Assembly: GCA_043827405.1 (NCBI GenBank)
Contig: JBDRPD010000053.1
Coordinates: 96,221-160,220 of the forward strand
Reading direction: 5' to 3'
From: Elusimicrobiota bacterium
GTDB taxonomy: Bacteria; Elusimicrobiota; Elusimicrobia; UBA1565
Length of the DNA stretch: 64,000 nucleotides
The first letter of the stretch is position 1. The number at the start of each line of letters is the position of its first letter. The notes beneath the pieces are model-generated. The model did not search any database and was not told the DNA's origin. It saw only the letters and a program-made list of their open reading frames with translations. A program made the translations under genes and the position numbers. This document shows, in pieces, positions 7,301 through 62,954 of this stretch.

Positions 7301-8327
7301 GGCCAATCCGCCCGGCCTTGTCGCCGCGCCGTTCGCCAGCGTGACCTCGTCGATCACGGTGCGCTGGACGCCGCTGCCCACATCCCCCTCTTCGGCGGCC
7401 TGCCAGGGCTATCAGGTGGAGGCCTCCACCTCGCCCACGTTTTATCCGATCGCCACCGCCAACCGCACCGCCGATGCGGCCGCGAGCTCGCTGGGAGTGG
7501 AGGGCCTGCTGTTTCAGACGACGTATTACCTGCGCGTCGGCGCGGTCAACCTCAACGGCGTCCCCACCTTCACCAACTTGGGCTCCAGCGTAACCGTGAT
7601 AGCGATACTCTCCAGCAGCACGCTCAACGGGAGCGAGCTGACGCTGTCCATCCTGCCGTCGGTACTGCAGCTCCAATACGTCGAGGTGAATATCCCGCCC
7701 GGCACGCTGCCGGACGGGGTGAGCGTCACCGTCAACGCGAGCGTGCCTTTTGATTTCGACTCATCGGCGGTCAAGCAGGTAAACCTGACCCCGCTGGGCG
7801 CCGGCGTCGCCATCGATATCGACGCGCAGGGAAATCAGCCGCTGGGTCCGGTGGCGATCCGTATGGACTACGATCCCGCCTTCCTGCCGCCCGGCGTCAG
7901 CAAGCACCAGCTGGTCATCGCGCACCTGCGCGACGGCTACTGGGACGTGCTGGAAACGGAAAACGACACCGCCGGCAATGTCCTGCGGGCGCAGACCCGG
8001 CACTTCTCGCTGTTCGCGCCGTTCTATGTCGCCGCGGGCACGGCGCTGGATAATGTGCAGATCTTCCCGATCCCCTGGATGCCGGGCTCCGGAGACGCCA
8101 ATTACGACGCGCCCAAGCTGAGCATCATGAATCTCCCCGCGGGAGGAAGCGTTCAGCTCTATTCCATAATCGGCGAATCGCTCGGCACCTGGGACGCGAG
8201 CGCCGCCGGCATGGTCTACTGGGACGGAAAATCCAAGCGCGGCATGGAAGCCGGCTCCGGGACCTACCTGGTCGTCATCTCCGGGGCGGGCGCGCGCCGG
8301 GTCGAGCGCGTGGTGGTTATCCGATGA
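4317..8327 (+). CDS. Secreted subtilisin-like serine protease (S8 family) with multiple fibronectin-III-like repeats and a T9SS-type C-terminal sorting domain
   Basis: The catalytic triad motifs are present: VIGFVDTGID (Asp), HGSHVAGIAAG (His) and GTSMAAPVVAG (Ser). A signal peptide begins at the ATG at 4317 (MAKSVAAGRGLLFCLLAGALLLC); the track start at 4233 is a GTG extension. Repeated roughly 90-aa Ser/Thr-rich modules follow (SISWTWGAVTNATSYNIYYA...). The C-terminus (VQLYSIIGESLGTWDASAAGMVYWDGKSKRGMEAGSGTYLVVISGAGARRVERVVVIR) matches the type-A Por/T9SS C-terminal domain, which is FlgD-Ig-like. Confidence 0.8.
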   Translation: MAKSVAAGRGLLFCLLAGALLLCGLPAELFAQHGKLSPRLRTMRRQAAEGRPVTGFGVAADAGTADPIVSLLLRLRPGATREAVVARYPGSHFGVLNGRILTARLRASLLDAIDTDPDVDYAESPARYEPALEIAKSSTTSGSVYLGILDPSSVDFGANKGQGVVIGFVDTGIDWDHYDFRDDVNVLQSRILSIWDQTIASHGGGPNPAGYAYGAEYTQTQINNEIDGLPAGVLQTLDTNGHGSHVAGIAAGDGSDSDGSPAAGTYSGIAPQADIIMVKTSFIPSDILDGVNYIVGKAAAAGKRAVVNLSIQGQSGAHDGTLSFEQGINTVAASTPVVIAMGNYHDKSDHALYTFAPSGIHSFTASRILAASTLEFEFWAATGDAYDLTITDGINTPVSVSNNQDKTSQAMGTASLDIYNGTNSHPGGDKQILITITGTISQSNFTFSFTRVSNGGTGKLHGWNIYTDYANFTSDVDLTSTLTSPSVIANGIGVGSYCSKQTWYDGTNTQQTDACTLGEISSFSGHGPTRDGRQKPDIAAPGHRLASTLSTDSSATSAYTAQDNRHYLRRGTSMAAPVVAGAIAVRIQQNSTLTAAQIKSNLQTDTHTDSMTGASLPDGTWGYGKLKVLACGNTVDSAPSAAVPVTLGASSISWTWGAVTNATSYNIYYATDTGTLIANVASPAYTFTSLAANTDYRLEIRGQNICGEGTGGVSLTTATLTVPVSGSGTFAQEITRVTVGYSKLSGQNEGYLLHASTAADFTGTIFSSSTPNSDLGTLLIEGLSGFTTYYFRIGTLNPQGASVFSTLGSTRTDTTLLAPGTSTFSNISESALRANWTRNGNPSGLQYFAYLSTAADFSGTLLTEQTSGLYADFSSLSANATYYFQVRPATGPFGAASSTATHALAPGAVTPAFTGVYLSSVTAYWTDGGNPSGTWMLVESSTEAGFGTLIDSSSTQNTSRLLTGVWTNTTVYVRVSALNRHGIPTSYLTLSTATMANPPGLVAAPFASVTSSITVRWTPLPTSPSSAACQGYQVEASTSPTFYPIATANRTADAAASSLGVEGLLFQTTYYLRVGAVNLNGVPTFTNLGSSVTVIAILSSSTLNGSELTLSILPSVLQLQYVEVNIPPGTLPDGVSVTVNASVPFDFDSSAVKQVNLTPLGAGVAIDIDAQGNQPLGPVAIRMDYDPAFLPPGVSKHQLVIAHLRDGYWDVLETENDTAGNVLRAQTRHFSLFAPFYVAAGTALDNVQIFPIPWMPGSGDANYDAPKLSIMNLPAGGSVQLYSIIGESLGTWDASAAGMVYWDGKSKRGMEAGSGTYLVVISGAGARRVERVVVIR

Positions 8328-9349
8328 GGGGCGCGCTCCTGCTGCTGGCGCTTGCCCTTCCCGCGAGCGCGTCGATCAGCAACACCGGCGGGTCGACGGC
8401 GCAGTTCCTGCGCATCGGCGCCGGCGCCCGGGCGCTGGGCATGGGAGACGCCTTCAGCGCCGTAGCCGAAGGCCCGGCCGCCATATACTGGAATCCCGCC
8501 GGCCTCGCGCAGCAGCGCCGGCCCGAACTCGGCTACACCCACATCGAGCTTCTGGATTTTTTCCATCACGAGCATATCGCCTACGCGCATCCCATTCCCC
8601 TGCTGCGCGGAACGCTCGGGACGGCGCTGACCTTCTTCTACGAGGACCGGCAGGATCTGGTCACCAACCGCAATGTGAAGGTCGGAACCTTTAAAAACCA
8701 CAGCGAAGTGTTCGCCTTCGCCTATGCGCGCGCATTCCGCATCGGCCACGACTGGGGGATGAGCGACCGCGACGCCTTCGCCGATCTCTGGCGCCTGGGC
8801 GGAGCGGAAATGCCCCTGCGGCCGGCGGACGAGATATGGAACGGCAACCTGCTGCTGGGGCTGTCCCTTAAAGGGGTGCGCAGCACGCTCTATGATCGCT
8901 CCGCGACGGCCTTCGCGGTGGACGGCGGCGCGATCTTCCGTCATTACGCGCTGTCCAAGATGAGTCTCAGCTTCGTTTTTCGCAATATCGGCACCAAGCA
9001 CCGCTTTATCAATAAGGCGCAGGACCTGCCCGCCGAGTTCTCGTTCGCCGCGGCCTTCGATCAGCGCTGGGACCGGCACCGCGTCCTGCCGGTCTTTGAA
9101 TGCGTGGTCCCCGTCTACGGCGTACCGACGGGGAGGCTGGGGGTGGAGTACAGTTTCCCGGTGAGCGACGACGCCTACGCCGCGGTGCGCGCCGGCTACA
9201 AATCCCTGCAGGCGCATGAGATCGGCGCGCTGTCCGGCTTGACCGGAGGCATCGGCTTCGGCTACCGGCACCTCTCGGTCGACTTCGGCCTGCAGCCGAT
9301 GGCGGTGCTGGGCGAAGCCTTCCGCGCCGAGATTTCCTACCGTTTCTAG
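8324..9349 (+). CDS. PorV/PorQ-family outer-membrane beta-barrel protein (candidate T9SS cargo shuttle)
   Basis: It has a signal peptide followed by the family-typical N-terminal motif GGSTAQFLRIGAGARALGMGDAFSAVAEGPAAIYWNPAGLA, and ends in a Phe (...ISYRF) as outer-membrane barrels do. Its ATG overlaps the protease TGA (ATGA). Confidence 0.55.
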   Translation: MRGALLLLALALPASASISNTGGSTAQFLRIGAGARALGMGDAFSAVAEGPAAIYWNPAGLAQQRRPELGYTHIELLDFFHHEHIAYAHPIPLLRGTLGTALTFFYEDRQDLVTNRNVKVGTFKNHSEVFAFAYARAFRIGHDWGMSDRDAFADLWRLGGAEMPLRPADEIWNGNLLLGLSLKGVRSTLYDRSATAFAVDGGAIFRHYALSKMSLSFVFRNIGTKHRFINKAQDLPAEFSFAAAFDQRWDRHRVLPVFECVVPVYGVPTGRLGVEYSFPVSDDAYAAVRAGYKSLQAHEIGALSGLTGGIGFGYRHLSVDFGLQPMAVLGEAFRAEISYRF

Positions 9350-9400
9350 CTGCCTACCGGGGACTGGAAGCCTCAACCCCTTAGTCCATCGAGGCAGCTT

Positions 9401-9452
9401 GCCCCGACGACGACAGGATACTGCGCTGATGCGAAACTGTCGTCGTCGGGGC
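9401..9452. terminator. GC-rich 16-bp perfect hairpin between convergent genes (putative bidirectional terminator, no U-tract)
   Basis: Stem gccccgacgacgacag (9401-9416) pairs with ctgtcgtcgtcggggc (9437-9452) around a 20-nt loop. It sits just after the PorV-like stop and abuts the stop of the minus-strand ORF 9452..9691. Confidence 0.35.
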
Positions 9453-9691
9453 TAGCTGATGCTGATCGGAGGGAAGTCCCCTTTCGACCAGCGGACGTCG
9501 CCGTCCGGTCCGACGAAGTAGTACAGCGGCATGCCCCGGACGCGGCACAGCTTCGCGACGCGGCCGTCCGCATCGAGCAGCATCTTGTACTCCACCTTGC
9601 TGCCGCGCAGATAGCCGACGGTGCGCGGGCGCTGCCCGTTCTGGAACAGCTTCGTCCCGATCAGTTCTTCTTCAACTTTTTTTATCTTCAT
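9452..9691 (-). pseudogene. TlpA/ResA-like thioredoxin-fold C-terminal fragment (79 aa), probably a truncated gene remnant
   Basis: The C-terminal segment KMLLDADGRVAKLCRVRGMPLYYFVGPDGDVRW resembles the end of TlpA/ResA thiol-disulfide oxidoreductases (VLDTD..YxV..PTTFLI..GKV). The CxxC-containing N-terminal half is absent. The first roughly 10 codons are AT-rich while the rest is GC-rich, suggesting a junction-derived start. Confidence 0.35.
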
Positions 9692-9914
9692 AGGATTACC
9701 TTGCAGACAGTGTACTCCGGGACGGGTTTTTCACTATGAAGCGAAGGGGCAGGCAGATTCGGGTATTGGCTCCAGAACGGCCTATTCCTAAACTCTCACT
9801 AATGTGAAATGGAAGTTCACAGCGGGGAGCGGCTTCCGCATGATTTTTGCGCTCTGCGGACGCTATTGTTAGGGCGCTCAGTCTGGAACTTAACTTGCTC
9901 CTCATTCGTATATA

Positions 9915-10454
9915 TTGGGAGTGGCGTCCTCAAAAGTCCCTATAGTCACACCTTCGCTATATTTTATCCGGGGACAGCAGGTGATCCTGGACTCGGATCT
10001 GGCGGTGTTGTTCGGTGTCTCGACGAAACGGCTTAACGAACAAATCCGGCGCAACCGAGATCGCTTCCCTGTTGATTTCGCATTTCGCCTAAATTCGACC
10101 GAATCCGAATTTTTGAGGTCGCAAATTGCGACCTCAAAAAAAGGACGCGGAGGCCGTCGATATTTGCCTTTCGTGCTGACTGAACACGGAGTTGTAATGG
10201 CGGCGAACGTGTTGAACTCAGTTCGGGCAGTCGCCATGAGTGTTGAAGTCGTAAGGGTTTTTGTCCGGTTTCGCAAAGCACTTCATTCCCGAGGCTCTCT
10301 CGCGAAGAAGCTTGAACAGCTCGAACAGGCAGTAAAAACGCGTTTAGACAAGAACGACACGGAAATCGAAGAATTATTCCAGGCCGTTGAATCGCTCATA
10401 AACATTAATGTCGATAGTCCTGGTCCAAATAGAAAAATAGGATTTGTTCCATGA
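9915..10454 (+). CDS. ORF6N domain protein (KilA-N-like DNA-binding; phage antirepressor-related family)
   Basis: FIRGQQVILDSDLAVLFGVSTKRLNEQIRRNRDRFPVDFAFRL...LRSQIATSKKGRGGRRYLPFVLTEHGVVMAANVLNS matches the ORF6N family consensus. The C-terminal half is coiled-coil-like. The start is non-ATG (TTG at 9915 or GTG at 9921). Confidence 0.7.
   Translation: MGVASSKVPIVTPSLYFIRGQQVILDSDLAVLFGVSTKRLNEQIRRNRDRFPVDFAFRLNSTESEFLRSQIATSKKGRGGRRYLPFVLTEHGVVMAANVLNSVRAVAMSVEVVRVFVRFRKALHSRGSLAKKLEQLEQAVKTRLDKNDTEIEELFQAVESLININVDSPGPNRKIGFVP
10110..10140. repeat. 31-nt perfect palindrome TTTTTGAGGTCGCAAATTGCGACCTCAAAAA inside the ORF6N CDS
   Basis: Read directly from the sequence. It encodes the conserved LRSQIATSK motif. 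Both strands have the T-run upstream and the A-run downstream of the stem, so it is not a canonical intrinsic terminator in either orientation. Confidence 0.6.
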
Positions 10455-10538
10455 ATCGCTCTAACGGGGGCGCAAATACTGCGGGGTGGCAGGCCCAGAC
10501 ACCATATGAGCCCGGGATGAGGGATTGGCGGCAGCCGC

Positions 10539-11399
10539 TCAGAACGGCATAACCTTGCGCACCACCGTCTCGATCAGAAAGAACGCCGTATCGGGTCCCT
10601 TGCGGTCGGTGGTGCAGACGTCCGCCGCCTGCACGCTCTGAATCAAATGCGGGTAGTACTCGCGCAGCTCAAGCTCGGAGGCGCGGGTAAACAGATGCTG
10701 CTTCATCATGATGCCGCCGCGCCGGTCTCCCATCTGGTCCCACAGCTTGCGCAGGCCGTCGAGGTTGGGATCGTAGTAGTCGGTGCGGGGATAGAGGTAC
10801 ACCTTGCCCGCATTAGGGCAGTAGTACTCCCCCTTCTTGTCCTCGGAGACGAGCTTTACCTTGAGCAGACGCTTGAGCGACTTCTTCACCACCGGCTGCT
10901 GAAATCCCGTCGCCTTGGCGAGCTCCGCGACGCTCCAATGCCCGATGTCGTTGGCCAGCACCGTAAACACCCAGTAGAGCTCGGATGACGAGTTCACGCA
11001 GGAGGCCTGCTCTTTGGTGAAGGGGATGCTGCGCGCCTCGTAGTTGCGCACCATGGCCTTGCGCAGCGGCGCCACCGGGACCTCGGCCGAACGCACCGTG
11101 GAGGTCATGGCGCTGACGATGAGCTTGAACAAGCTCTCCGTTCCGACCAAGCTCTTAAGATAGGACTCGACGAACTCCTTGCGCCGCGAGGCGTCGTAGG
11201 GCAGGCGCAGGGCCTGCGAGATCTTTTCGACCAGCTTGGCCCCGGGCGCCGACACGCCCTTCTCCACGTTGAGGTACTGCCGGTAGGTGCAGCCGAAAAA
11301 AACCCGGCCGCCGGAATCCTGATAGAACGAGCGCGCCGAGTTATGCCCCGCGTCCGACCTCAGCGTCTGCAGCGTATTGGAAAAATATTCCCAGGACAT
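10539..11399 (-). CDS. Hypothetical protein with a predicted winged-helix DNA-binding region
   Basis: The GC-rich ORF has a likely ATG start at 11399 (MSWEYFSNTL); the track's 11438 is a TTG extension. The segment ELAKATGFQQPVVKKSLKRLLKVKLV resembles a wHTH. No confident family assignment. Confidence 0.45.
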   Translation of the reverse strand: MSWEYFSNTLQTLRSDAGHNSARSFYQDSGGRVFFGCTYRQYLNVEKGVSAPGAKLVEKISQALRLPYDASRRKEFVESYLKSLVGTESLFKLIVSAMTSTVRSAEVPVAPLRKAMVRNYEARSIPFTKEQASCVNSSSELYWVFTVLANDIGHWSVAELAKATGFQQPVVKKSLKRLLKVKLVSEDKKGEYYCPNAGKVYLYPRTDYYDPNLDGLRKLWDQMGDRRGGIMMKQHLFTRASELELREYYPHLIQSVQAADVCTTDRKGPDTAFFLIETVVRKVMPF

Positions 11400-11403
11400 A
11401 GGG

Positions 11404-11901
11404 TCACCTGTAGTTCTCGAACTGCAGCGCCAGGCCAAAGTCCTTGCCCTTGAGAAAGGAGATCGCCTCCTGCAGCTCGTCTTTCGATTTGGCCGTCACC
11501 CGCAGCTGGTCCTTCTGGATGGACGCCTGGACCTTCAGCTTGGTCTTCTTGAGCTCTTTGACGATCTCTTTAGCCTTATCGGAAGGAATTCCCTGCGTGA
11601 TCTTGACGAGCATCCGCGCCGTACCGCCGAGGGCGCTTTCCACCTTCTCATCGACGAAATTCTTCAGCGGTAGTTCGCGCTTGGCCAGCCGCATATTGAG
11701 CACATCCAGCAGCGCCTTCACCTTGAAATCGTCGGTGGACTGCAGCGTCAAAACCGCCGCCTTCTGATCATATTCAATCGTGGATTTGGTGCCGCGGAAG
11801 TCATAGCGATTGCCGATCTCCTTGAGCGCGACCTGAACGCAGTCGCCGATCGCGTGCATGTCGACCTTGGATACGACGTCGAACGAGAATTCCTTTGCCA
11901 T
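11404..11901 (-). CDS. yajQ: YajQ-family (UPF0234) nucleotide/c-di-GMP-binding protein
   Basis: 165 aa beginning MAKEFSFDVVSKVDMHAIGDCVQVALKEIGNRYDFRG, the typical YajQ N-terminus. An ATG start with a GGAG Shine-Dalgarno upstream. Confidence 0.8.
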   Translation of the reverse strand: MAKEFSFDVVSKVDMHAIGDCVQVALKEIGNRYDFRGTKSTIEYDQKAAVLTLQSTDDFKVKALLDVLNMRLAKRELPLKNFVDEKVESALGGTARMLVKITQGIPSDKAKEIVKELKKTKLKVQASIQKDQLRVTAKSKDELQEAISFLKGKDFGLALQFENYR

Positions 11902-16971: not shown

Positions 16972-19185
16972 CTACTTCGACGTCAGGTTAAAGACCCCGT
17001 CCCAGATAGCGGGCGGCGGAATCACCAAATAGTCCTTGCAGGCGTTGTGATAGAGCTTGGTCGGCTTGTCATCGGGCAGCAGCTTAAGCACTTTTTCGAA
17101 GTCCGTTTTCGCGTCCTCGAAGCTGCGCTTGAGGTACTTCTCGATGGCGCCGTGATAGAGCGGCAGGGCCTCCGTCCACTCCTTGGAGAGCTCGCCCTTC
17201 TTGGCCAGCAGCTCGTAGACCATAATGGGGATATCCTTGCCGACGACGCGCACCGAGCCGAGCCGCCGGGCCTCGACCGCCTCCTTGGCTCCCTCATAAG
17301 TATCTTCGCTGCACATAACCACCGAGCCGAAAAACTTGTTGGCGCCCTCGAGACGGCTGGAAAGGTTCACCTCGTCGCCCAGCACCGTATAGGCCAGCTT
17401 GCGCGCCGAGCCGGTATTGCCGACGACGACCTCGCCGGAATTCAGGCCGATGCGCACGGCGGGCTTTTCCGGCATGGTGGGATCGACATACTCATCATTG
17501 AGCCGCTGGATGGTCTTGATGCAGCCGAGCGCCGCCAAGCAAGCCTGCTCACGGTGTTTGTGAACCTTGAGCGGGGCGTTCCAGAAAGCCATGATGCAGT
17601 CGCCGATATACTTATCAACCACGCCTTTGCTTTCCAGGATGTCGTCGGTCAGCGCCGTCAGGTAGCGGTTGAGGAAGTTGATGAGGGCTTCCGGCGTCAT
17701 CTTCTCCGAGATCGACGTGAAGTGCGCGATATCGAGAAAGAAGATCGTCATATCCCGCTTCTCGCCGCCGAGGCGCAGCTTGCTGCGGTCTTTAACGAGA
17801 ATGTCGACGATCTCCGGCGCCACGTACTGACCGAACATGGCGCGCACCTCCTTCTTCTGCTGCTGTTCGAGCATGGTCTTGTGGACCATCAGCACGCCGA
17901 AGGTCACGCCGAGCGACAGCATCGGCGCCCAGAACTCCAGCACGTAGAGGTTGACGAAGGCGAAATAGGTCGCCAGCACCCAGCCGACGAGCAAACCCAC
18001 GAACGCCAGGCCCGCCGTCAGCGCCGGCAAGGACACCAGCCAGTAGGCCGCGCAGGCCAAGGCAAAGATCATAATATAGCTGACCGCGCGCGGCGCTTCC
18101 CGCAGATAGCGGTTGTTGAGCAGATTATCCACCAGCGTGGCATGGGACTCGACTCCGGGCGTACTGCCGCTGAAGGCGGTGGGAAAGTGGTCGTAGGCGC
18201 CCTGCGCCGTGGCGCCGACCAAAACCAGCCCGCCGTCGAGCTGCTTCTTGATCAGCTCGCGCTCGGCCGACATCAGCTTATCCAGCTCAAGAATCTTCCA
18301 GGCCGGAATGCGCTTGATGCCGTAGCGGGCCGGTCGCGCGACGGGCTGGAGCTTATTATTGTCGTCGATCTCAAAATCCTGAAACCCCGGGATCTCGCCG
18401 CGCAGGTTCAAACGAATCTGGTTGCGGCCATGCTCCTTGACGTAGCTGTCGGGCTCGCGCTCCTCGAAGGCGGCGAGAACTTTGAGGCCGAAGCTGGTCA
18501 CCCGTTCTTTATCCGTAGTCCAGGTATCCCGCATCGGAACCTGGGCGTTGACGCCCACCAGAAACGGGATCTCACGCACCGTCCCATCGTTGTCGGACAG
18601 CGGCTGCTGGACCAAGCCGTAGTTCTTGTAGACTCCCTCGAGCTCGTCAAAGAACGGCAAATCGAAATCCCAGACCTGGTTAAACTGATATAACTCGCCG
18701 CGCGTGTCCAGCGCGATCGCGTGCACGAGCTTTTTACCGGCCTTATTGGTCCAGCGTATCAGCGCCCGGTCCTTGGGCCCCGGGATCAGCTTCCCGCTCT
18801 TGTCCCGCTTGCTGTCGTTGGGATCGAGAAACAGTATATCGAGGCCGACCGCCTTGGTCCCGGAGGCGTAGAGATTGTCGAGCAGCTTGCCGTAGACGTC
18901 GCGCGGCCAGGGATAAGCGCCCACTTTCTCCAGCGAGGTATCGTCGATCGAGACCACCGTTATCCGGGGATCCCCTTCCTCCATGCCGCGCCTGCGAAAC
19001 AGGGTATCCACCCAGGCATCATCGTGGGAGCTGAACACAAAAAAGAAATTCAGGGCGGCCAGCAGCAGCGCGAAGCCGGCGGTGAATCGTTTATGAAAGG
19101 CGTACTTCGCCGACTTCCCCTCACCGTCGCCGGCGTCGGCGGCTCCCATTGCTTTGGCTTTTTCACTAGCGGTTTTTGTGGCCAT
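16972..19185 (-). CDS. CHASE2 sensor-domain class III adenylate/guanylate cyclase
   Basis: The N-terminal CHASE2 hallmark is present (VVSIDDTSLEKVGAYPWPRDVYGKLL) before a cluster of TM helices. The cyclase catalytic core follows (RDMTIFFLDIAHFTSISE, GDCIMAFWNAP, GLNSGEVVVGNTGS). The tail is TPR-like. Confidence 0.8.
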   Translation of the reverse strand: MATKTASEKAKAMGAADAGDGEGKSAKYAFHKRFTAGFALLLAALNFFFVFSSHDDAWVDTLFRRRGMEEGDPRITVVSIDDTSLEKVGAYPWPRDVYGKLLDNLYASGTKAVGLDILFLDPNDSKRDKSGKLIPGPKDRALIRWTNKAGKKLVHAIALDTRGELYQFNQVWDFDLPFFDELEGVYKNYGLVQQPLSDNDGTVREIPFLVGVNAQVPMRDTWTTDKERVTSFGLKVLAAFEEREPDSYVKEHGRNQIRLNLRGEIPGFQDFEIDDNNKLQPVARPARYGIKRIPAWKILELDKLMSAERELIKKQLDGGLVLVGATAQGAYDHFPTAFSGSTPGVESHATLVDNLLNNRYLREAPRAVSYIMIFALACAAYWLVSLPALTAGLAFVGLLVGWVLATYFAFVNLYVLEFWAPMLSLGVTFGVLMVHKTMLEQQQKKEVRAMFGQYVAPEIVDILVKDRSKLRLGGEKRDMTIFFLDIAHFTSISEKMTPEALINFLNRYLTALTDDILESKGVVDKYIGDCIMAFWNAPLKVHKHREQACLAALGCIKTIQRLNDEYVDPTMPEKPAVRIGLNSGEVVVGNTGSARKLAYTVLGDEVNLSSRLEGANKFFGSVVMCSEDTYEGAKEAVEARRLGSVRVVGKDIPIMVYELLAKKGELSKEWTEALPLYHGAIEKYLKRSFEDAKTDFEKVLKLLPDDKPTKLYHNACKDYLVIPPPAIWDGVFNLTSK

Positions 19186-19275
19186 CTAGATCACCTCGTA
19201 TGCGCGATAGGCTAGCAGGCTATGAGTGAGTTGGCAATACCACCACCCGGCGCCCCACCCGGTACCCCACTACTC

Positions 19276-19351
19276 GGTACCGGTTATTAACATTAACTTT
19301 CGTAAGCAGTATTTAGCACCAATGCGAAAGTTAATGTTAATAACCGGTACC
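19276..19351. repeat. Perfect 27-bp inverted repeat GGTACCGGTTATTAACATTAACTTTCG / CGAAAGTTAATGTTAATAACCGGTACC with a 22-nt spacer, 90-165 nt upstream of the cyclase start
   Basis: Read directly from the sequence. The arms are AT-rich in a GC-rich genome and are flanked by GGTACC motifs. The position lies between the ccdA 3' end and the cyclase 5' end on the minus strand. Confidence 0.7.
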
Positions 19352-19353
19352 AA

Positions 19354-20085
19354 CTATAGTCCTAGGCCTCCAAAGAAACGGGTCCAGGACGGAAAAAACG
19401 ACAGCGGCCAGGTCGCCAGACGGGAAAACCAGCCGGCCGCCAGCACCGCGCCAAGCAGGATCAGCAGAATACCCGCCCCGCGCTCAATGGCGGGCAGCTT
19501 CGGCTTGATGCGGTTGAGCAGCGGGATAGCCCGCTCCAGCGCCAGCGCGCAGAGAAACAGCGGCAGCGCCATGCCCAGCGAGTAGATGCTCAAAAGCAGC
19601 ACCCCGGTCCCGACCGAACCGCTGCGCCCGGCCATCACCAGAATCGCGCTCAGCTGGGGCCCCACGCAGGGCGTCCAACCGGCGGCGAAAGCCGCGCCGA
19701 CAAGCACATTGCCCAGCAGGCCCGCCGGCTTCCGGTCGAAGTGGAATCGCCCTTCCTTATGGAGAAAGCCCACTTTGAGCACGCCCACCATCCACAAGCC
19801 GAACAGGACCAGCGCGATCCCGCCCAGCCGTTCGATCCAAACGCGGTAAGCGAACAGCACCCGGCCGAGATACGACGCCGAAGCGCCCATGGCGATGAAC
19901 ACCAGCGAGAAGCCGAGGATGAAGAAGCCGGCATTGATCAGCACCAGACGCCGGGGCGTCTTCGAGGTCAGCTCATCGAAGGTCGCACCGCTCAGCGTCG
20001 CCAGATACACCGGTATCAGGGGCAGGACGCAGGGCGACACGAAGCTGGCCAGCCCCGCGACGAAGGCCAATCCGACTTCCACCAT
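19354..20085 (-). CDS. ccdA: Cytochrome c-type biogenesis / disulfide-reductant transfer protein CcdA (DsbD transmembrane-domain family)
   Basis: A polytopic membrane protein with the two conserved Cys in TM helices (FVSPCVLPLIP ... GWTPCVGPQL). Confidence 0.75.
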   Translation of the reverse strand: MVEVGLAFVAGLASFVSPCVLPLIPVYLATLSGATFDELTSKTPRRLVLINAGFFILGFSLVFIAMGASASYLGRVLFAYRVWIERLGGIALVLFGLWMVGVLKVGFLHKEGRFHFDRKPAGLLGNVLVGAAFAAGWTPCVGPQLSAILVMAGRSGSVGTGVLLLSIYSLGMALPLFLCALALERAIPLLNRIKPKLPAIERGAGILLILLGAVLAAGWFSRLATWPLSFFPSWTRFFGGLGL

Positions 20086-37972: not shown

Positions 37973-38350
37973 ATGGACCTCAAGAAATATTTCACCAGCA
38001 CCAAAGGCCTCGGCGTACTGGCCACTTCCAACGACCAGGGCGTCGTCAACACGGCCGTCTATGCCCGGCCGCATGTGATCGGTAAAAACAGGGTCGCCTT
38101 TATCATGACCCCGCGGCTGACGCATGAGAACCTGCAGTCGAACCCGCGCGCTTCCTACCTCTTCCACGAGGCGGGCTTCGAGCACGCCGGCAAGCGGCTG
38201 ATGCTGACCATGGTGGGGGAATCGACCGACAGCCGCAAGATCGAGGCGCTGCGCCGCCGGACCACGCCGGCCATCTGCAGCGGCAAAAAGGGCGACCGGC
38301 GCTACCTGGTCACCTTCCGCATCGACAAGGTGCTGCCGCTAACCAACTGA
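37973..38350 (+). CDS. Pyridoxamine 5'-phosphate oxidase-like FMN-binding split-barrel protein
   Basis: 125 aa; the GVLATSNDQGVVNTAVYARPHVIGKNRVAFIMTPRLTHENLQSNPRASYLF pattern is typical of PNPOx-like proteins. Confidence 0.6.
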   Translation: MDLKKYFTSTKGLGVLATSNDQGVVNTAVYARPHVIGKNRVAFIMTPRLTHENLQSNPRASYLFHEAGFEHAGKRLMLTMVGESTDSRKIEALRRRTTPAICSGKKGDRRYLVTFRIDKVLPLTN

Positions 38351-38370: not shown

Positions 38371-38406
38371 GCCTCGAGGCTCCGGTGTCGGCCGGAGCCT
38401 TGAGGT
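38371..38406. terminator. GC-rich hairpin (stem about 15 bp with two G-U pairs, 6-nt loop) followed by ACUAUUU on the plus strand; a convergent-gene terminator
   Basis: gcctcgaggctccgg (38371-38385) and ccggagccttgaggt (38392-38406) can pair. It lies between the PNPOx-like stop (38350) and the cNMP-binding gene stop (38412). Confidence 0.45.
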
Positions 38407-38411
38407 ACTAT

Positions 38412-38855
38412 TTAGTCGCCGTAAAGGCGCTTCTCGGCCAGGGTCTTCAGGTGTTCAGCCAGCTTCTGATTGCGCTCCACCAGAGCCTTTAAGTCGTCCT
38501 CGACCAGGCGGAAGAGCAGGCTGTCCGCAACGGCTACCGCGCTCGCCACGCGCTTCTCGTCCCGGATCAAGGCTATCTCTCCGAAGAGCTCCCCGGGCCC
38601 GAGCGAACCCATCTCGGCGCCGGCCATCCCCAGCGACTGCCGGATGGCGACCTCGCCGGCACAGACGACATAGAGGTCCTTGGACATCTCGCCCTGCTGG
38701 ATGACCGTCGCGTCTTGGGGATAAAGGAAGAGCCCGCTGCGGGGGAAAAGCTCCTTTACCTGCGCCGCCGACAGGGACGGATAGAGCGCCTCCATGTCGA
38801 GCGCCTTGTGCAGCGTCTTCACCGCCTGCTCGTCAAGCTCCTTCGCTTCCGCCAT
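38412..38855 (-). CDS. Single-domain cyclic-nucleotide-binding (CAP/cNMP) protein
   Basis: The cNMP-binding signature is present: GEVAIRQ ... GELFGEIALIRDEKRVASAVA. There is no DNA-binding or other output domain. Confidence 0.7.
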   Translation of the reverse strand: MAEAKELDEQAVKTLHKALDMEALYPSLSAAQVKELFPRSGLFLYPQDATVIQQGEMSKDLYVVCAGEVAIRQSLGMAGAEMGSLGPGELFGEIALIRDEKRVASAVAVADSLLFRLVEDDLKALVERNQKLAEHLKTLAEKRLYGD

Positions 38856-59476: not shown

Positions 59477-60418
59477 ATGCGCATCCTGCTCACCGGCGGC
59501 ACCGGCTTCATCGGCCGGCACGTGCTCCCCAAGCTCGGCGGCCATACAGTCCTGCTGCTGACGCGCAGCAAGGCGCGGGCGCCGGGCGGCGTCCAGGTCC
59601 TCGAGGGCGACCTCGCCGACCTCGCCGGCCTGCAGGGGCCGATCAAGGAATTCGCCCCCGAATGCTGCGTCCACCTCGCCTGGGAGGGGCGGCCCGACTA
59701 CTCGCAGGAGCAATGCAATAAAAACCGCATGCTCTCGACCCAGCTCTTCAACCTGCTGGTCGACGAAACCAAGTGCGCCCGCATCGTCGCCGCCGGCACC
59801 CGCAGCGAGTACGCCGCGCTGCGCGGCGCGCTCAAGGAGGACGACCCCGTCGACAGCCCCGGCGACCTGGCGCTGGCCAAGAAGCAGCTCTTCAACTGCG
59901 GCATGGCGCTGGCCAACACCTGCGACATCCAGTTCTACTGGCTGCGCCTGTTCTCGGTCTACGGGCCCGGCCAGCGCCCCGACTGCCTGCTCCCCACCCT
60001 CGCCATGCGTTTTCAGGAGGAGCGCATCCGCCGGCTCACCCCGACCACGAAGCACCACTTTGACGCCGACGTGAAGTACGAGGTCCTGACCCCGGCCAAC
60101 GCCCACGACTTCATCCACGTCGACGACGCCGCCGCCGCGATCGCCGCGGCGGTGACGGCGAACGCCCCGAGCGGCGCCTACAACGTGGGGACCGGCTGCG
60201 CGGTCAAGGTCGCCAAGGTCTGCGGCCTGATGGAGAAGAAGCTGGCCGGCCGCCGCGACTATACCCGGACTCTCAAGAGCCGACCGCGCAAGAACTCGGA
60301 AGGCGCCTGGGCCGACCTGACCAAGACGCGGACGGCGCTGGGATGGGAACCCAAGTACGATATCGCCGTCGGCATCGACCGCTGCCTGCGCGCCGACCGC
60401 TTCGGCCAGACCATCTAG
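59477..60418 (+). CDS. NAD-dependent epimerase/dehydratase (extended SDR)
   Basis: MRILLTGGTGFIGRHV is the Rossmann motif; an active-site Y at the 153 region follows (SVYGPGQRP). Confidence 0.8.
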   Translation: MRILLTGGTGFIGRHVLPKLGGHTVLLLTRSKARAPGGVQVLEGDLADLAGLQGPIKEFAPECCVHLAWEGRPDYSQEQCNKNRMLSTQLFNLLVDETKCARIVAAGTRSEYAALRGALKEDDPVDSPGDLALAKKQLFNCGMALANTCDIQFYWLRLFSVYGPGQRPDCLLPTLAMRFQEERIRRLTPTTKHHFDADVKYEVLTPANAHDFIHVDDAAAAIAAAVTANAPSGAYNVGTGCAVKVAKVCGLMEKKLAGRRDYTRTLKSRPRKNSEGAWADLTKTRTALGWEPKYDIAVGIDRCLRADRFGQTI

Positions 60419-61146
60419 CCGCCGCTAGGCTGATTTGCGTCTTTTTTGATTCTACCGAGCGAGCGCGCGGCTGCCGAGCGAACGTCCTGATTCTCGTCAG
60501 ATAGGTGCTTCTTCAGCTCGGGGACAGCACTCGATGCCGCCGCCCCATAATATCCCAGGAGTCGGATGAGGCGCCGGCGCCCTCTTAAGCCGGATTTTTG
60601 CAACGCGGCAGTCACGACCGGCAGCGCTTCCTGCGCCGTCGGGCCGGGCCCCATACGGGTCAGGATAAACGAGCCGGATTCTTCGGGATCAGTCAGCATG
60701 TACGAAGCTCTCTCGCTCACCTCCGGCCAGTCGCTCTGCATGGCCTCCACGAGCCGCTCCACCGACCACGAGGGCTTGGGGGCCATGGAAATACCGTAGC
60801 CGAGCAGCAGGAGATATGAAGCGAATGCGGTTAAAATTGAATAGATAAAAAATCGTTTCGCCCGCGCCGATGCCGCCCAGCCCTTAGGATCTAAAAAAAC
60901 AACAGGCAGTAGGAACAAGCCGTAGAACATGGCCAGCTCCAGGCACTCGCCCGGCCTGATCGAAGCGTCGTAAAAATAGAGCGTGCCGAGATACCATCCG
61001 GCGGGGAGCGCCAGGACTGCCGTCTTCATCCACAGACGCCGCGCATGGAGTTTCGCCAGGTGCAAAGCCGCGAGCCCCGCTATCCCCGCGAACACGAGGA
61101 CCAGCGGCGGCAGCAGCATAAGCGGAAAATCATGAAACAGCGGCAT
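60415..61146 (-). CDS. Membrane protein with C-terminal HEAT (PBS-lyase-like) repeats
   Basis: Four to five N-terminal TM helices are followed by a C-terminal segment LIRLLGYYGAAASSAVPELKKHLSDENQDVRSAAARSLGRI, typical of HEAT_2/PBS-lyase repeats. It is the last gene of a five-gene overlapping operon. Confidence 0.5.
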   Translation of the reverse strand: MPLFHDFPLMLLPPLVLVFAGIAGLAALHLAKLHARRLWMKTAVLALPAGWYLGTLYFYDASIRPGECLELAMFYGLFLLPVVFLDPKGWAASARAKRFFIYSILTAFASYLLLLGYGISMAPKPSWSVERLVEAMQSDWPEVSERASYMLTDPEESGSFILTRMGPGPTAQEALPVVTAALQKSGLRGRRRLIRLLGYYGAAASSAVPELKKHLSDENQDVRSAAARSLGRIKKDANQPSGG

Positions 61147-61148
61147 GC

Positions 61149-61379
61149 CTATTCGACCATAGAGGTGCCGGGGTTAAACCAAATATCGGTGAAGACCCAC
61201 GTCGCCGCGCTGACGATCAGCAGACAGAGCGGGATTACCCAGCACAGCCTGCCGGCGCGGTTAAGGAGCCCCCTTCCGCCCTCGCCGGAAGCGAGATAGA
61301 AGTACCCCCCCGTCGAGCATGCGCTGAGAAAGAAGAACAAAAAGTATGGGATAAGAGTAAAGACCGTATAAATTCTCAT
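61149..61379 (-). CDS. Small membrane protein
   Basis: Two predicted TM helices. The likely start is the ATG at 61379 (MRIYTVFTLIPYFLFFFLSAC), overlapping the upstream stop. Confidence 0.4.
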   Translation of the reverse strand: MRIYTVFTLIPYFLFFFLSACSTGGYFYLASGEGGRGLLNRAGRLCWVIPLCLLIVSAATWVFTDIWFNPGTSMVE

Positions 61380-62053
61380 GCCCGCACCTTCCGGTCCATC
61401 CAAGAAATCGCCCGCTTAAGCGGCAGAAGCGCCAGCAGAGATGAGAGGACCAGCGCGCTAAACACAGGAAACGGCTCATCGGGCGGCAGACACGCGCACT
61501 CGAGCATCTTCCCGAACGCGCTGCCGAATTTAAACGCCGGGAACACCATAACCGCGAGAACGATCCCCGGCCAGGCGTGCCGAAGTCCCCGCGCTTTCCG
61601 GCTCAGATAATACCCCCCAATGCTCAGGACCGGCAAGATGAGTCCCGCCGAGCGATAAAATCGCGTCAAGGATTCCGGCTGCCCTTCAACAGATGTCATG
61701 GTGAGCAAAAGCGGCGAACCGATCTCGATAAACTGCGCGCCCCCCACATCCCTCACTATCATGATCGACAGGAACGAATACCACGCCAGCAAAGGGAGCA
61801 AGAACAGAGCGGACAGGCGCGACAGGACGAAATGGTGGTGCCGCGCCGCGGCATCATCATCGTGATAGGTACGCAAAGAACGGTATCCGAACACCGCCAG
61901 CCAAATCCACTGCATGAAGCATAGAGACAGCGCATAGTATTCCGCATAAGGGATGTGCAGGAAGGAAAAAACCATAAGCGCCAGCGTGACCAGGGCGAGG
62001 CCGACGGAATCCGCGGCGACATACAGCCGGCGTTCGATCAAGCCGCCGTTCAC
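61376..62053 (-). CDS. Polytopic membrane protein, function unknown
   Basis: About 6 TM helices, with a His-rich loop (HDDDAAARHHHF). It overlaps its neighbours by 4 nt. Confidence 0.45.
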   Translation of the reverse strand: MNGGLIERRLYVAADSVGLALVTLALMVFSFLHIPYAEYYALSLCFMQWIWLAVFGYRSLRTYHDDDAAARHHHFVLSRLSALFLLPLLAWYSFLSIMIVRDVGGAQFIEIGSPLLLTMTSVEGQPESLTRFYRSAGLILPVLSIGGYYLSRKARGLRHAWPGIVLAVMVFPAFKFGSAFGKMLECACLPPDEPFPVFSALVLSSLLALLPLKRAISWMDRKVRA

Positions 62054-62436
62054 ATCTTCACCAACGCGAAATTAACGGCGGCAAGCAGCATCAAAAGCAG
62101 CGCCCATGAGGCGGCTAGCCGTCCGCTCAGCTTGATTTTCTGCTCGGATGCTTCTGGCGAAGCGCGAAGCCGCGCCGCGAGATAGGTAAACGGCAGCACG
62201 GCCAAGGCGGAGACTGCCGCCTCAAAAATTCCCGTCTTGAGTCCCGCCGCCAGGGTTGAAAAGTGGACGATATCCGCCGCGCAATCAAGCAGCCGAGTCG
62301 AGCCGACGAGCGCCGCGAGGAAAACCGCGAAGTGCCAGCGGCTGCGAAGCCGTGGAGCCAGGCCCCAGGTCAAGACCGCGACGGACATGAACATGACTCC
62401 TACGGCGAGGATGCGCGACGGCGGGTACAAAGTCAT
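62050..62436 (-). CDS. Small polytopic membrane protein, function unknown
   Basis: 128 aa with about 4 TM helices. Confidence 0.45.
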   Translation of the reverse strand: MTLYPPSRILAVGVMFMSVAVLTWGLAPRLRSRWHFAVFLAALVGSTRLLDCAADIVHFSTLAAGLKTGIFEAAVSALAVLPFTYLAARLRASPEASEQKIKLSGRLAASWALLLMLLAAVNFALVKM

Positions 62437-62954
62437 GGTCCTGCCTTTTTCTCCAGTTCTTTTAAGGCGTGCTCGACCGCGGAGTGCATATTCGGCGCCT
62501 TATCTTGCGTGAGCTTTCTTAGGTGAGGCAAGGCCTTTGGATCGCCCAGTTCGGCCAGGCCGTATACGGCTGCGACTCTGACATAATCGCTCTCGTCATT
62601 TAGAGAATCAATAAGAGTATCGAGATGTTTGGAATCCCGGGTATAACCTAAAGTCCTGGCAGCACATGCGCGCAGATCGGGACGGGGAGTCTGCAGCAGG
62701 TCCAGCAGCCCCTTGACCGCCTTTTCGCGGCTCGTCCGTGATGAGGTCTCATCCAATACCCATTCACTGGAGCCTTCCCGGATGCAAAGCTCGGCAGCCG
62801 CCTTTGCTTCCGGCTGGAGTTTCTTAAGGAGCTCGCGATCTTCCGATGAAAGCAGCATAAATTCTGTGACAAAAAATATGCCGATGAACCCAAGCGCCGC
62901 TAAAGTCCCCAGCCCCAGCAGGGTTCTAAACAGCGCTTTAATAACGTTTTTCAC
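62433..62954 (-). CDS. Membrane-anchored HEAT (PBS-lyase-like) repeat protein
   Basis: An N-terminal TM anchor is followed by the HEAT-like repeats ...CAARTLGYTRDSKHLDTLIDSLNDESDYVRVAAVYGLAELGDPKALPHLRKL. It is the first gene of the operon. Confidence 0.5.
   Translation of the reverse strand: MKNVIKALFRTLLGLGTLAALGFIGIFFVTEFMLLSSEDRELLKKLQPEAKAAAELCIREGSSEWVLDETSSRTSREKAVKGLLDLLQTPRPDLRACAARTLGYTRDSKHLDTLIDSLNDESDYVRVAAVYGLAELGDPKALPHLRKLTQDKAPNMHSAVEHALKELEKKAGP

Follow-up and report, generated by a model that had tools for sequence, protein, structure and literature searches.

We analysed a window of 64 kb, by which we mean the whole stretch of DNA, from an uncultured Elusimicrobiota bacterium whose CHASE2 cyclase is 59–65% identical to its best relatives. 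The locus studied here reads sucC-sucD-ccdA, a palindrome, the CHASE2 nucleotidyl cyclase and a thiolase, with all genes on the minus strand (Table 1). The palindrome lies in the spacer between the last gene of the sucC-sucD-ccdA string and the cyclase, and is accompanied by a cluster of shorter repeats and by a promoter-like motif nearer to the cyclase.

Table 1. Genes and sequence features at the ccdA-cyclase junction, with positions counted in the 64-kb window unless a relative is named.
Feature	Positions	Strand	Remarks
sucC	22157-20988	minus	
sucD	21036-20089	minus	
ccdA (DsbD_TM family), last of the sucC-sucD-ccdA string	20085-19354	minus	C-terminus ...GL* and stop position match the orthologues
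Extended imperfect palindrome, 32-nt arms, 94% complementary	19271-19356	.	the ccdA stop TAG lies within the outermost 5 nt of one side
Direct-repeat copy 1, TAGTTGGTACCGG (TAGT-TGGTACCGG)	19344-19356	minus	spans the stop codon plus the outermost 8 nt of an arm
Inverted-repeat arm proximal to ccdA	19325-19351	.	exact reverse complement of 19276-19302
Spacer or hairpin loop, 22 nt, 36% GC	19303-19324	.	
Inverted-repeat arm proximal to the cyclase	19276-19302	.	GGTACCGGTTATTAACATTAACTTTCG on the plus strand
Direct-repeat copy 2, TAGTGGGGTACCGG	19259-19272	minus	begins 3 nt past the other arm; holds the third GGTACC
G-quadruplex-type motif GGGGTACCGGGTGGGGCGCCGGG, 12-nt tandem units	19246-19268	minus	between the palindrome and the -35 box
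Putative cyclase promoter	19204-19237	minus	TTGCCA (19237-19232), 17-nt spacer, TGC-TAGCCT (19217-19209)
Conserved 16-mer CCTGCTAGCCTATCGC	19219-19204	minus	at -34 from the ATG also in L083 and L085
Promoter-like motif in relatives	L083 390-431; L085 448-489		
CHASE2 and class III nucleotidyl cyclase	19185-16972	minus	Shine-Dalgarno AGGTGA at 19196-19191
Thiolase	16862-15717	minus	

The preliminary description of this DNA had reported a perfect 27-bp inverted repeat with a 22-nt spacing, and the sequence bears this out: the arms are complementary at 27 of 27 positions, with no G-U pairs and no bulges. The repeat had also been placed 90–165 nt upstream of the cyclase start and just 3′ of ccdA, in agreement with a cyclase ATG at 19185 on the minus strand and a ccdA stop codon TAG (19356-19354) that lies 2 nt from the repeat's outer end; the three GGTACC motifs that it counted in the region are found at 19261, 19276 and 19346. 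We correct it on two points, in that ccdA and the cyclase are both on the minus strand and the pairing reaches 32-nt arms, which gives a perfect palindrome of 76 bp and one of 86 bp with the imperfect extension. Its picture of a GC-rich intergenic region applies to the 38 nt adjoining the palindrome (71% GC), but not to the palindrome itself (37%) or to the 168-nt ccdA-cyclase spacer as a whole (49%). The genome has about 64% GC, and the palindrome lies below all intergenic regions in the window (46–73%, mean 58%).

Each arm carries tandem ATTAAC hexamers (ATTAAC-ATTAAC ... GTTAAT-GTTAAT), and the arm centres are 49 bp apart. The only open reading frame that runs through the palindrome is 27 codons long. 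Folded as RNA, the 86 nt reach −46.3 kcal/mol, compared with −15.7 ± 3.2 kcal/mol for shuffled sequences (z = −9.6); the corresponding DNA fold is −28.5 kcal/mol. In 100 dinucleotide shuffles of the window we found no arm matches at up to 3 mismatches. The palindrome is thus real and non-random. No U-tract follows the stem on either strand (GAGUAGUGGGG follows on the minus and AACUAUAGUCC on the plus strand), and the palindrome is absent from the output of a terminator scan. A canonical intrinsic terminator, with a GC-rich stem of about 5–15 bp, a short loop and a U-tract, is a poor description of a 27-bp stem of 37% GC with a 22-nt loop and no U-tract, and we rejected it. A known structured RNA was rejected as well: Rfam gave no gathering-level hit across the window, and under permissive settings the best matches were eukaryotic miRNA-precursor models at 25–32 bits, far below gathering thresholds of 99–230. 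Resemblances to attC, dif, the Fur box, the LexA box and REP sequences (GTAG head) were considered, and none fitted the palindrome sequence.

The palindrome is embedded in a dense patch of short repeats. An imperfect 13/14-nt direct repeat flanks it, and only 0.35% of shuffles score equally high in local alignment. This direct repeat could be a target-site duplication. Its copy 1, however, overlaps an arm rather than abutting it and is the outer part of that arm, and the TA found 3 nt outside each arm is itself within the palindrome extension; the flanking repeats are not what a clean transposon insertion would leave, nor what a simple duplication would. The G-quadruplex-type motif next to the second copy is one of two on the minus strand in the 64 kb. 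Base composition predicts 21.6 copies of GGTACC, a KpnI-type site, for the window, but only 8 are present, three of them at the palindrome. As a separate observation, GGCGCC is enriched in the same 64 kb (112 vs 70 expected), and the GGTACC deficit and GGCGCC excess might reflect a host restriction-modification system. The local density of short repeats suits a site prone to slippage or template switching.

We compared the locus with its counterparts in relatives. The order sucC-sucD-ccdA-cyclase is kept in three of them (L003, L084 and L083), with ccdA-cyclase gaps of 11, 33 and 65 nt, respectively, vs 168 nt in the window. The repeat is absent from these three, from L085 and from about 40 further cyclase loci. 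The 300 nt preceding the start were compared in about 45 Elusimicrobiota cyclase loci, where the longest perfect stems measure 6–11 bp, as against 27 bp in the window. CcdA ends at the same aligned ...GL* in the window, L003, L083 and L084, so the stop codon stands at its ancestral place and the extra DNA begins directly after it. Neither the arms nor the loop resemble intergenic DNA of the relatives (p about 0.7, shuffling); a likeness of TTTCGC...TGCTA to the L083 promoter region, noticed by eye, was discarded at the same level (shuffling p about 0.7). In the relatives with 11–33 nt gaps, the cyclase is presumably co-transcribed with ccdA. A collection of 5.8 billion proteins held no cluster between 65% and 100% identity to the cyclase; with the nearest relative at only 65% cyclase identity, there is no close strain from which the event could be dated or reconstructed.

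The relatives do share a motif between the palindrome's position and the cyclase. The sequence CCTGCTAG[G/C]CTAT[G/C]GC is found at exactly −34 relative to the cyclase ATG in the window, in L083 (p < 0.001) and in L085 (p = 0.006). In all three, TGC precedes TAG[G/C]CT, and 17 nt ahead of the latter stands a TTG-hexamer (TTGCCA, TTGTGT or TTGAGA). This conserved motif is likely the cyclase's own extended −10 promoter, shared across the clade, an assignment that draws on three loci only. A consensus promoter scan listed no site at 19204-19237, where the hexamers are too weak for the scan. The palindrome ends 38 nt upstream of the putative −35 box. If the promoter is correct, the hairpin would fall outside the cyclase's primary leader and in the 3′ tail of sucCD-ccdA, because the promoter is downstream of it; if the conserved 16-mer is instead a leader element, the hairpin could be part of the cyclase mRNA.

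We searched widely for further copies. Within the 64-kb window there was no second copy at up to 3 mismatches, nor by blastn-short at word size 7, and about 85 fetched loci (about 0.7 Mb, mostly Elusimicrobiota) contained no copy or fragment of the palindrome. The arm 20-mer GGTTATTAACATTAACTTTC had 0 exact matches in 185,579 GTDB species genomes (one per species), in IMG/VR and in JGI metagenomes, these scans being exact-match searches that would miss copies diverged by more than about 5–10%. Phages and plasmids, searched by BLASTN with 151 nt, yielded 0 hits. A relaxed pattern, TTAACATTAAC-N17-47-GTTAATGTTAA, which requires an 11-nt core in each arm, matched 60 metagenome stretches and 1 viral stretch; we rejected these as a family, as they comprised rpsI coding sequence, TTAACA-type microsatellites and unrelated hairpins with only the seed in common. 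No transposase was found among the window proteins scanned, a scan in which RAYT was not specifically targeted. Across the 64-kb window and the exact-match collections, the palindrome is a singleton. Of the three outcomes that the preliminary description had listed as refuting its suggestions, two are therefore what we found: no other copies in the collections searched and no conservation in relatives.

Two metagenome loci deserve mention for their own sake. L118 (JGI Ga0209713_10039121) carries at 1470-1790 dense GTGTTAATGTTAACAC-type 13–16-mers in both orientations within 320 nt, an array that resembles iterons or a multi-site operator and whose relation to the window is the shared TTAACATTAAC word only. 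L129 (JGI Ga0164243_10000493, GC 0.68) has at 1190-1236 an AT-rich inverted repeat, AGTTAACATTAACAA-N14-TTGTTAATGTTAACT, in a GC-rich contig, where it fills the gap from a stop codon to the next gene's ATG. It has the core word alone in common with the window palindrome, probably by coincidence.

Other hairpins stand at gene ends elsewhere in the window. A second long hairpin (9395-9458; 22-nt arms with one mismatch, 20-nt loop, GC-rich, −47.5 kcal/mol) lacks a T-run and lies between the convergent genes 8324-9349(+) and 9452-9691(-), its right arm overlapping the stop codon of the 79-aa gene. Kinship between its loop and that of the palindrome was considered and dropped: the two share the 8-mer TTTCGCAT and a 7-mer in inconsistent orientation, at chance level. 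A third hairpin (38371-38406; 16-bp stem, 4-nt loop) separates the convergent genes 37973-38350(+) and 38412-38855(-) and was listed by the U-tract scan with a T-containing tail, ACTATTTAGT. The second gene of this pair codes for a protein with a cyclic-nucleotide-binding domain, which might receive the product of the cyclase. U-tract terminators are weakly enriched in the window (25, 22 and 19 found vs 14–16 expected). From these two gene-end hairpins, one of them without a T-run, and the marginal U-tract enrichment, hairpin-only 3′ ends may be usual in this genome.

Two stretches of lower GC were also seen in the window. The patch at 9400-11440 (55–60% GC) encodes an ORF6N (KilA-N-like) DNA-binding protein at 9915-10454(+) with unannotated neighbours and may be a small mobile or phage-derived islet. 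The run at 60415-62954 (57–63% GC) holds five small overlapping minus-strand genes, two of which encode HEAT / PBS-lyase repeat proteins while the others have no Pfam match.

Taken with moderate confidence, the reading we favour is that of a single-copy, lineage-specific palindrome which originated as a DNA-level event, after the ccdA stop codon and before the putative cyclase promoter, and whose hairpin would mark the 3′ end of the upstream operon. Its origin may have followed either of two routes, each of which would yield exact Watson-Crick symmetry in a single step: template switching during replication, in which one arm is copied from the other and perfect pairing is created or restored, or the one-off insertion of a small foldback element. 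Perfect hairpins can arise from a single template switch, and template switching can also homogenise repeat arms or make them expand (PMC10710096, PMC8604942, PMC13100816, PMC7202029). Insertion of foldback or MITE-type elements is likewise a known event (PMC10969869). The two routes differ in the ancestor they imply. For template switching it would have had one arm only; for insertion it would have been an empty site in which the stop TAG was joined directly to TGGGGTACCGGG or similar (TAG-TGGGGTACCGG uninterrupted).

Stems selected as RNA tolerate and usually gather G-U pairs, and protein operators need just short half-sites. A 27-bp stem with neither G-U pair nor bulge therefore points to a recent DNA copying event and not to long selection as RNA or as an operator. 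Since no second copy and no parent element were found, an orphan origin is favoured; the low GC, which could signal a foreign, mobile origin over local duplication, and the flanking repeat leave room for insertion as the alternative.

As for how the palindrome would act, transcription through it and any effect at the RNA level are inferred. Transcription of sucC-sucD-ccdA would enter the palindrome 2 nt past the stop codon, and the transcript would fold into a perfect stem of 27–29 bp at about −46 kcal/mol. In silico the palindrome provides the at least about 20 bp of uninterrupted double-stranded RNA that characterise an RNase III substrate or 3′ stabiliser. Such a stem would stand in the way of 3′-to-5′ exonucleases, would have the length that RNase III needs for binding or cleavage, and could pause or partly stop RNA polymerase despite the absent U-tract. 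The net effect would be to mark or stabilise the 3′ end of the upstream operon and to insulate the cyclase in part, whose transcription would begin at the putative TTGCCA-17-TGCTAGCCT promoter, 38 nt beyond the palindrome.

The alternatives to this orphan hairpin differ in what they take the symmetry to be. The palindrome may be a copy of a low-copy or undescribed MITE or foldback family, with 21–27-bp terminal inverted repeats and a short target duplication, inserted after ccdA by a transposase encoded elsewhere. We regard this as unlikely, though it has real points in its favour: 76 bp of non-coding DNA with 27-bp perfect terminal inverted repeats falls within the size range of such elements (about 50–500 bp), the composition looks foreign (37% GC vs 58% for intergenic regions and 64% genome-wide), relatives have an empty orthologous site, and the element is flanked by TA...TA and the imperfect 13/14-nt direct repeat. 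Contigs of the Logan assembly also break at the palindrome edges, as they do at repeats, and single-copy families exist, some bacterial MITE families having as few as one copy per genome (PMC10969869). Yet dispersed copies were found neither in the window nor in the roughly 85 loci, GTDB genomes, IMG/VR, JGI metagenomes, phages or plasmids, and the arm 20-mer lacks an exact match in three very large collections, so that no parent IS was found; nor is there a transposase among the window proteins scanned, or a direct repeat cleanly adjacent to the repeat ends, copy 1 being outer arm. Of the MITE-like character proposed in the preliminary description, the terminal inverted repeats and the TSD-like direct repeat thus stand, while the multi-copy part failed in all collections searched. 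The same contig breaks bear on a quite different possibility, that the palindrome is an assembly or library artefact (a fold-back chimera) or an invertible switch with a flipping spacer. In SRR26275510, the Logan contigs L001 (1-30) and L002 (1850-1884) both break inside the palindrome with a 28-nt overlap, one starting exactly at an arm's outer end and the other stopping 1 nt past the same arm's inner end; such an overlap is not expected, as a 27-nt repeat is shorter than k−1 at k = 31. Perfect palindromes are a known class of artefact, and these odd breaks fit one. Against it, the palindrome does not lie at an end of the window, and the identical cyclase protein is recorded (ncbi and Logan) with 194,892 bp as its longest contig. 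The sequence on either side is unique, and a second assembler (Logan) recovers the palindrome in full next to the cyclase, as well as one arm linked to ccdA. As for an inversion switch, site-specific inversion would need a longer spacer than 22 bp, and a flipping loop was rejected as the source of the breaks: both arms should then be broken symmetrically, but L001 continues uninterrupted through the second. An artefact or switch is thus scarcely credible, and the breaks possibly come from hairpin-induced coverage loss or minor alleles.

The two remaining alternatives give the palindrome a function in cyclase control. One makes it a regulatory hairpin in the 5′ leader or intercistronic part of a ccdA-cyclase co-transcript, tuning the cyclase by attenuation or RNase III cleavage; it overlaps the favoured reading and differs mainly in the gene served. 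The 11–33 nt gaps in L003 and L084 make ancestral co-transcription probable, the fold is very stable, and Correia elements of Neisseria act in this way (PMC2649163). The hairpin is, however, conserved in no relative, a conserved promoter-like motif lies downstream of it, its perfect Watson-Crick arms bear no sign of RNA-level evolution and no Rfam family matched at the gathering threshold, all of which makes a co-transcript hairpin rather improbable. The stable RNA hairpin in the cyclase leader that had been suggested earlier accordingly holds for its stability but not for its place, for which the 3′ tail of ccdA is more likely. The other alternative takes the symmetric ATTAAC-ATTAAC ... GTTAAT-GTTAAT half-sites as an operator through which a dimeric or tetrameric regulator controls the cyclase promoter. 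Perfect symmetry, tandem hexamers in each arm and an end 38 nt upstream of the putative −35 box are what speak for it. The palindrome is nevertheless missing from all orthologous promoters examined, 27-bp arms with centres 49 bp apart are far beyond normal geometry, the motif occurs nowhere else in the window and no regulator gene is adjacent. We consider an operator very unlikely and do not retain the proposal of a dimeric regulator's site, given its absence from every orthologous cyclase locus and arms far longer than half-sites.

Known systems offer partial parallels. In being small, with 26–27-bp terminal inverted repeats and TA ends, and intergenic near gene ends or starts, the palindrome resembles Correia elements (CREE) and bacterial MITEs (PMC2649163, PMC10969869). 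Transcripts of these elements fold into a long hairpin, open to binding or cleavage by RNase III, and the elements can also separate promoters or create them (PMC2649163, PMC10969869); for CREE the action of RNase III on the 26-bp repeats is documented (PMC2649163). CREE, however, measure 104–157 bp (with rare 71–73-bp variants), share a conserved core and number at least 100 per genome, whereas the palindrome has 76 bp, no second copy in anything searched and no clean target duplication. It is also like REP/BIME sequences (RAYT-mobilised) in being an extragenic palindrome near a gene's 3′ end, but REP are 20–40 nt, imperfect, headed by a conserved 5′ GT[AG]G and highly repeated, and no repetition was found here. 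By analogy, the palindrome would work as a transcribed palindrome of the Correia or REP type but lacks the multiple copies that mark both.

Closer in form are template-switch hairpins and quasipalindrome correction, with which it shares perfect pairing over the whole stem, lineage specificity, single copy number and local repetitiveness (PMC10710096, PMC8604942, PMC7202029). In documented template-switch cases a reconstructed ancestor shows the donor arm; here no relative is close enough. Stabilising 3′-end or intercistronic stem-loops are known from the REP sequence in malE-malF and the hairpins of the puf operon, and hairpin-only 'I-shaped' terminators from actinobacteria. The palindrome resembles these in standing right after a stop codon in a co-directional string, in its stability and in the absent U-tract. 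Those elements are conserved or repeated, usually GC-rich, and have shorter imperfect stems; the palindrome, in contrast, is AT-rich, perfect and unique.

A bolder extension, which we think improbable, would see in the palindrome the first copy to come to light of a foldback element of GC-rich Elusimicrobiota, undescribed and kept at very low copy number, that targets GGTACC-containing sites just past stop codons, here co-opted as a U-tract-free hairpin insulator that frees a signalling gene from the expression level of a TCA-cycle operon, with the SRR26275510 contig breaks as presence/absence alleles. To our knowledge, no mobile-element family of this kind has been described for Elusimicrobiota. 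Further copies in the full genome, if found, would give the palindrome greater weight, as the first such family of the phylum.

We regard the feature as ordinary in kind, a solitary lineage-specific intergenic palindrome or hairpin for which a mobile family or a regulator site is unsupported. It would matter more if long U-tract-free hairpins prove to end transcripts as a rule in the phylum. Its exact symmetry argues for recent DNA copying over a selected operator or RNA. The palindrome offers a further example of how suddenly a perfect hairpin can arise between two genes, here a pair whose coupling is tight in relatives, perhaps dividing an operon.
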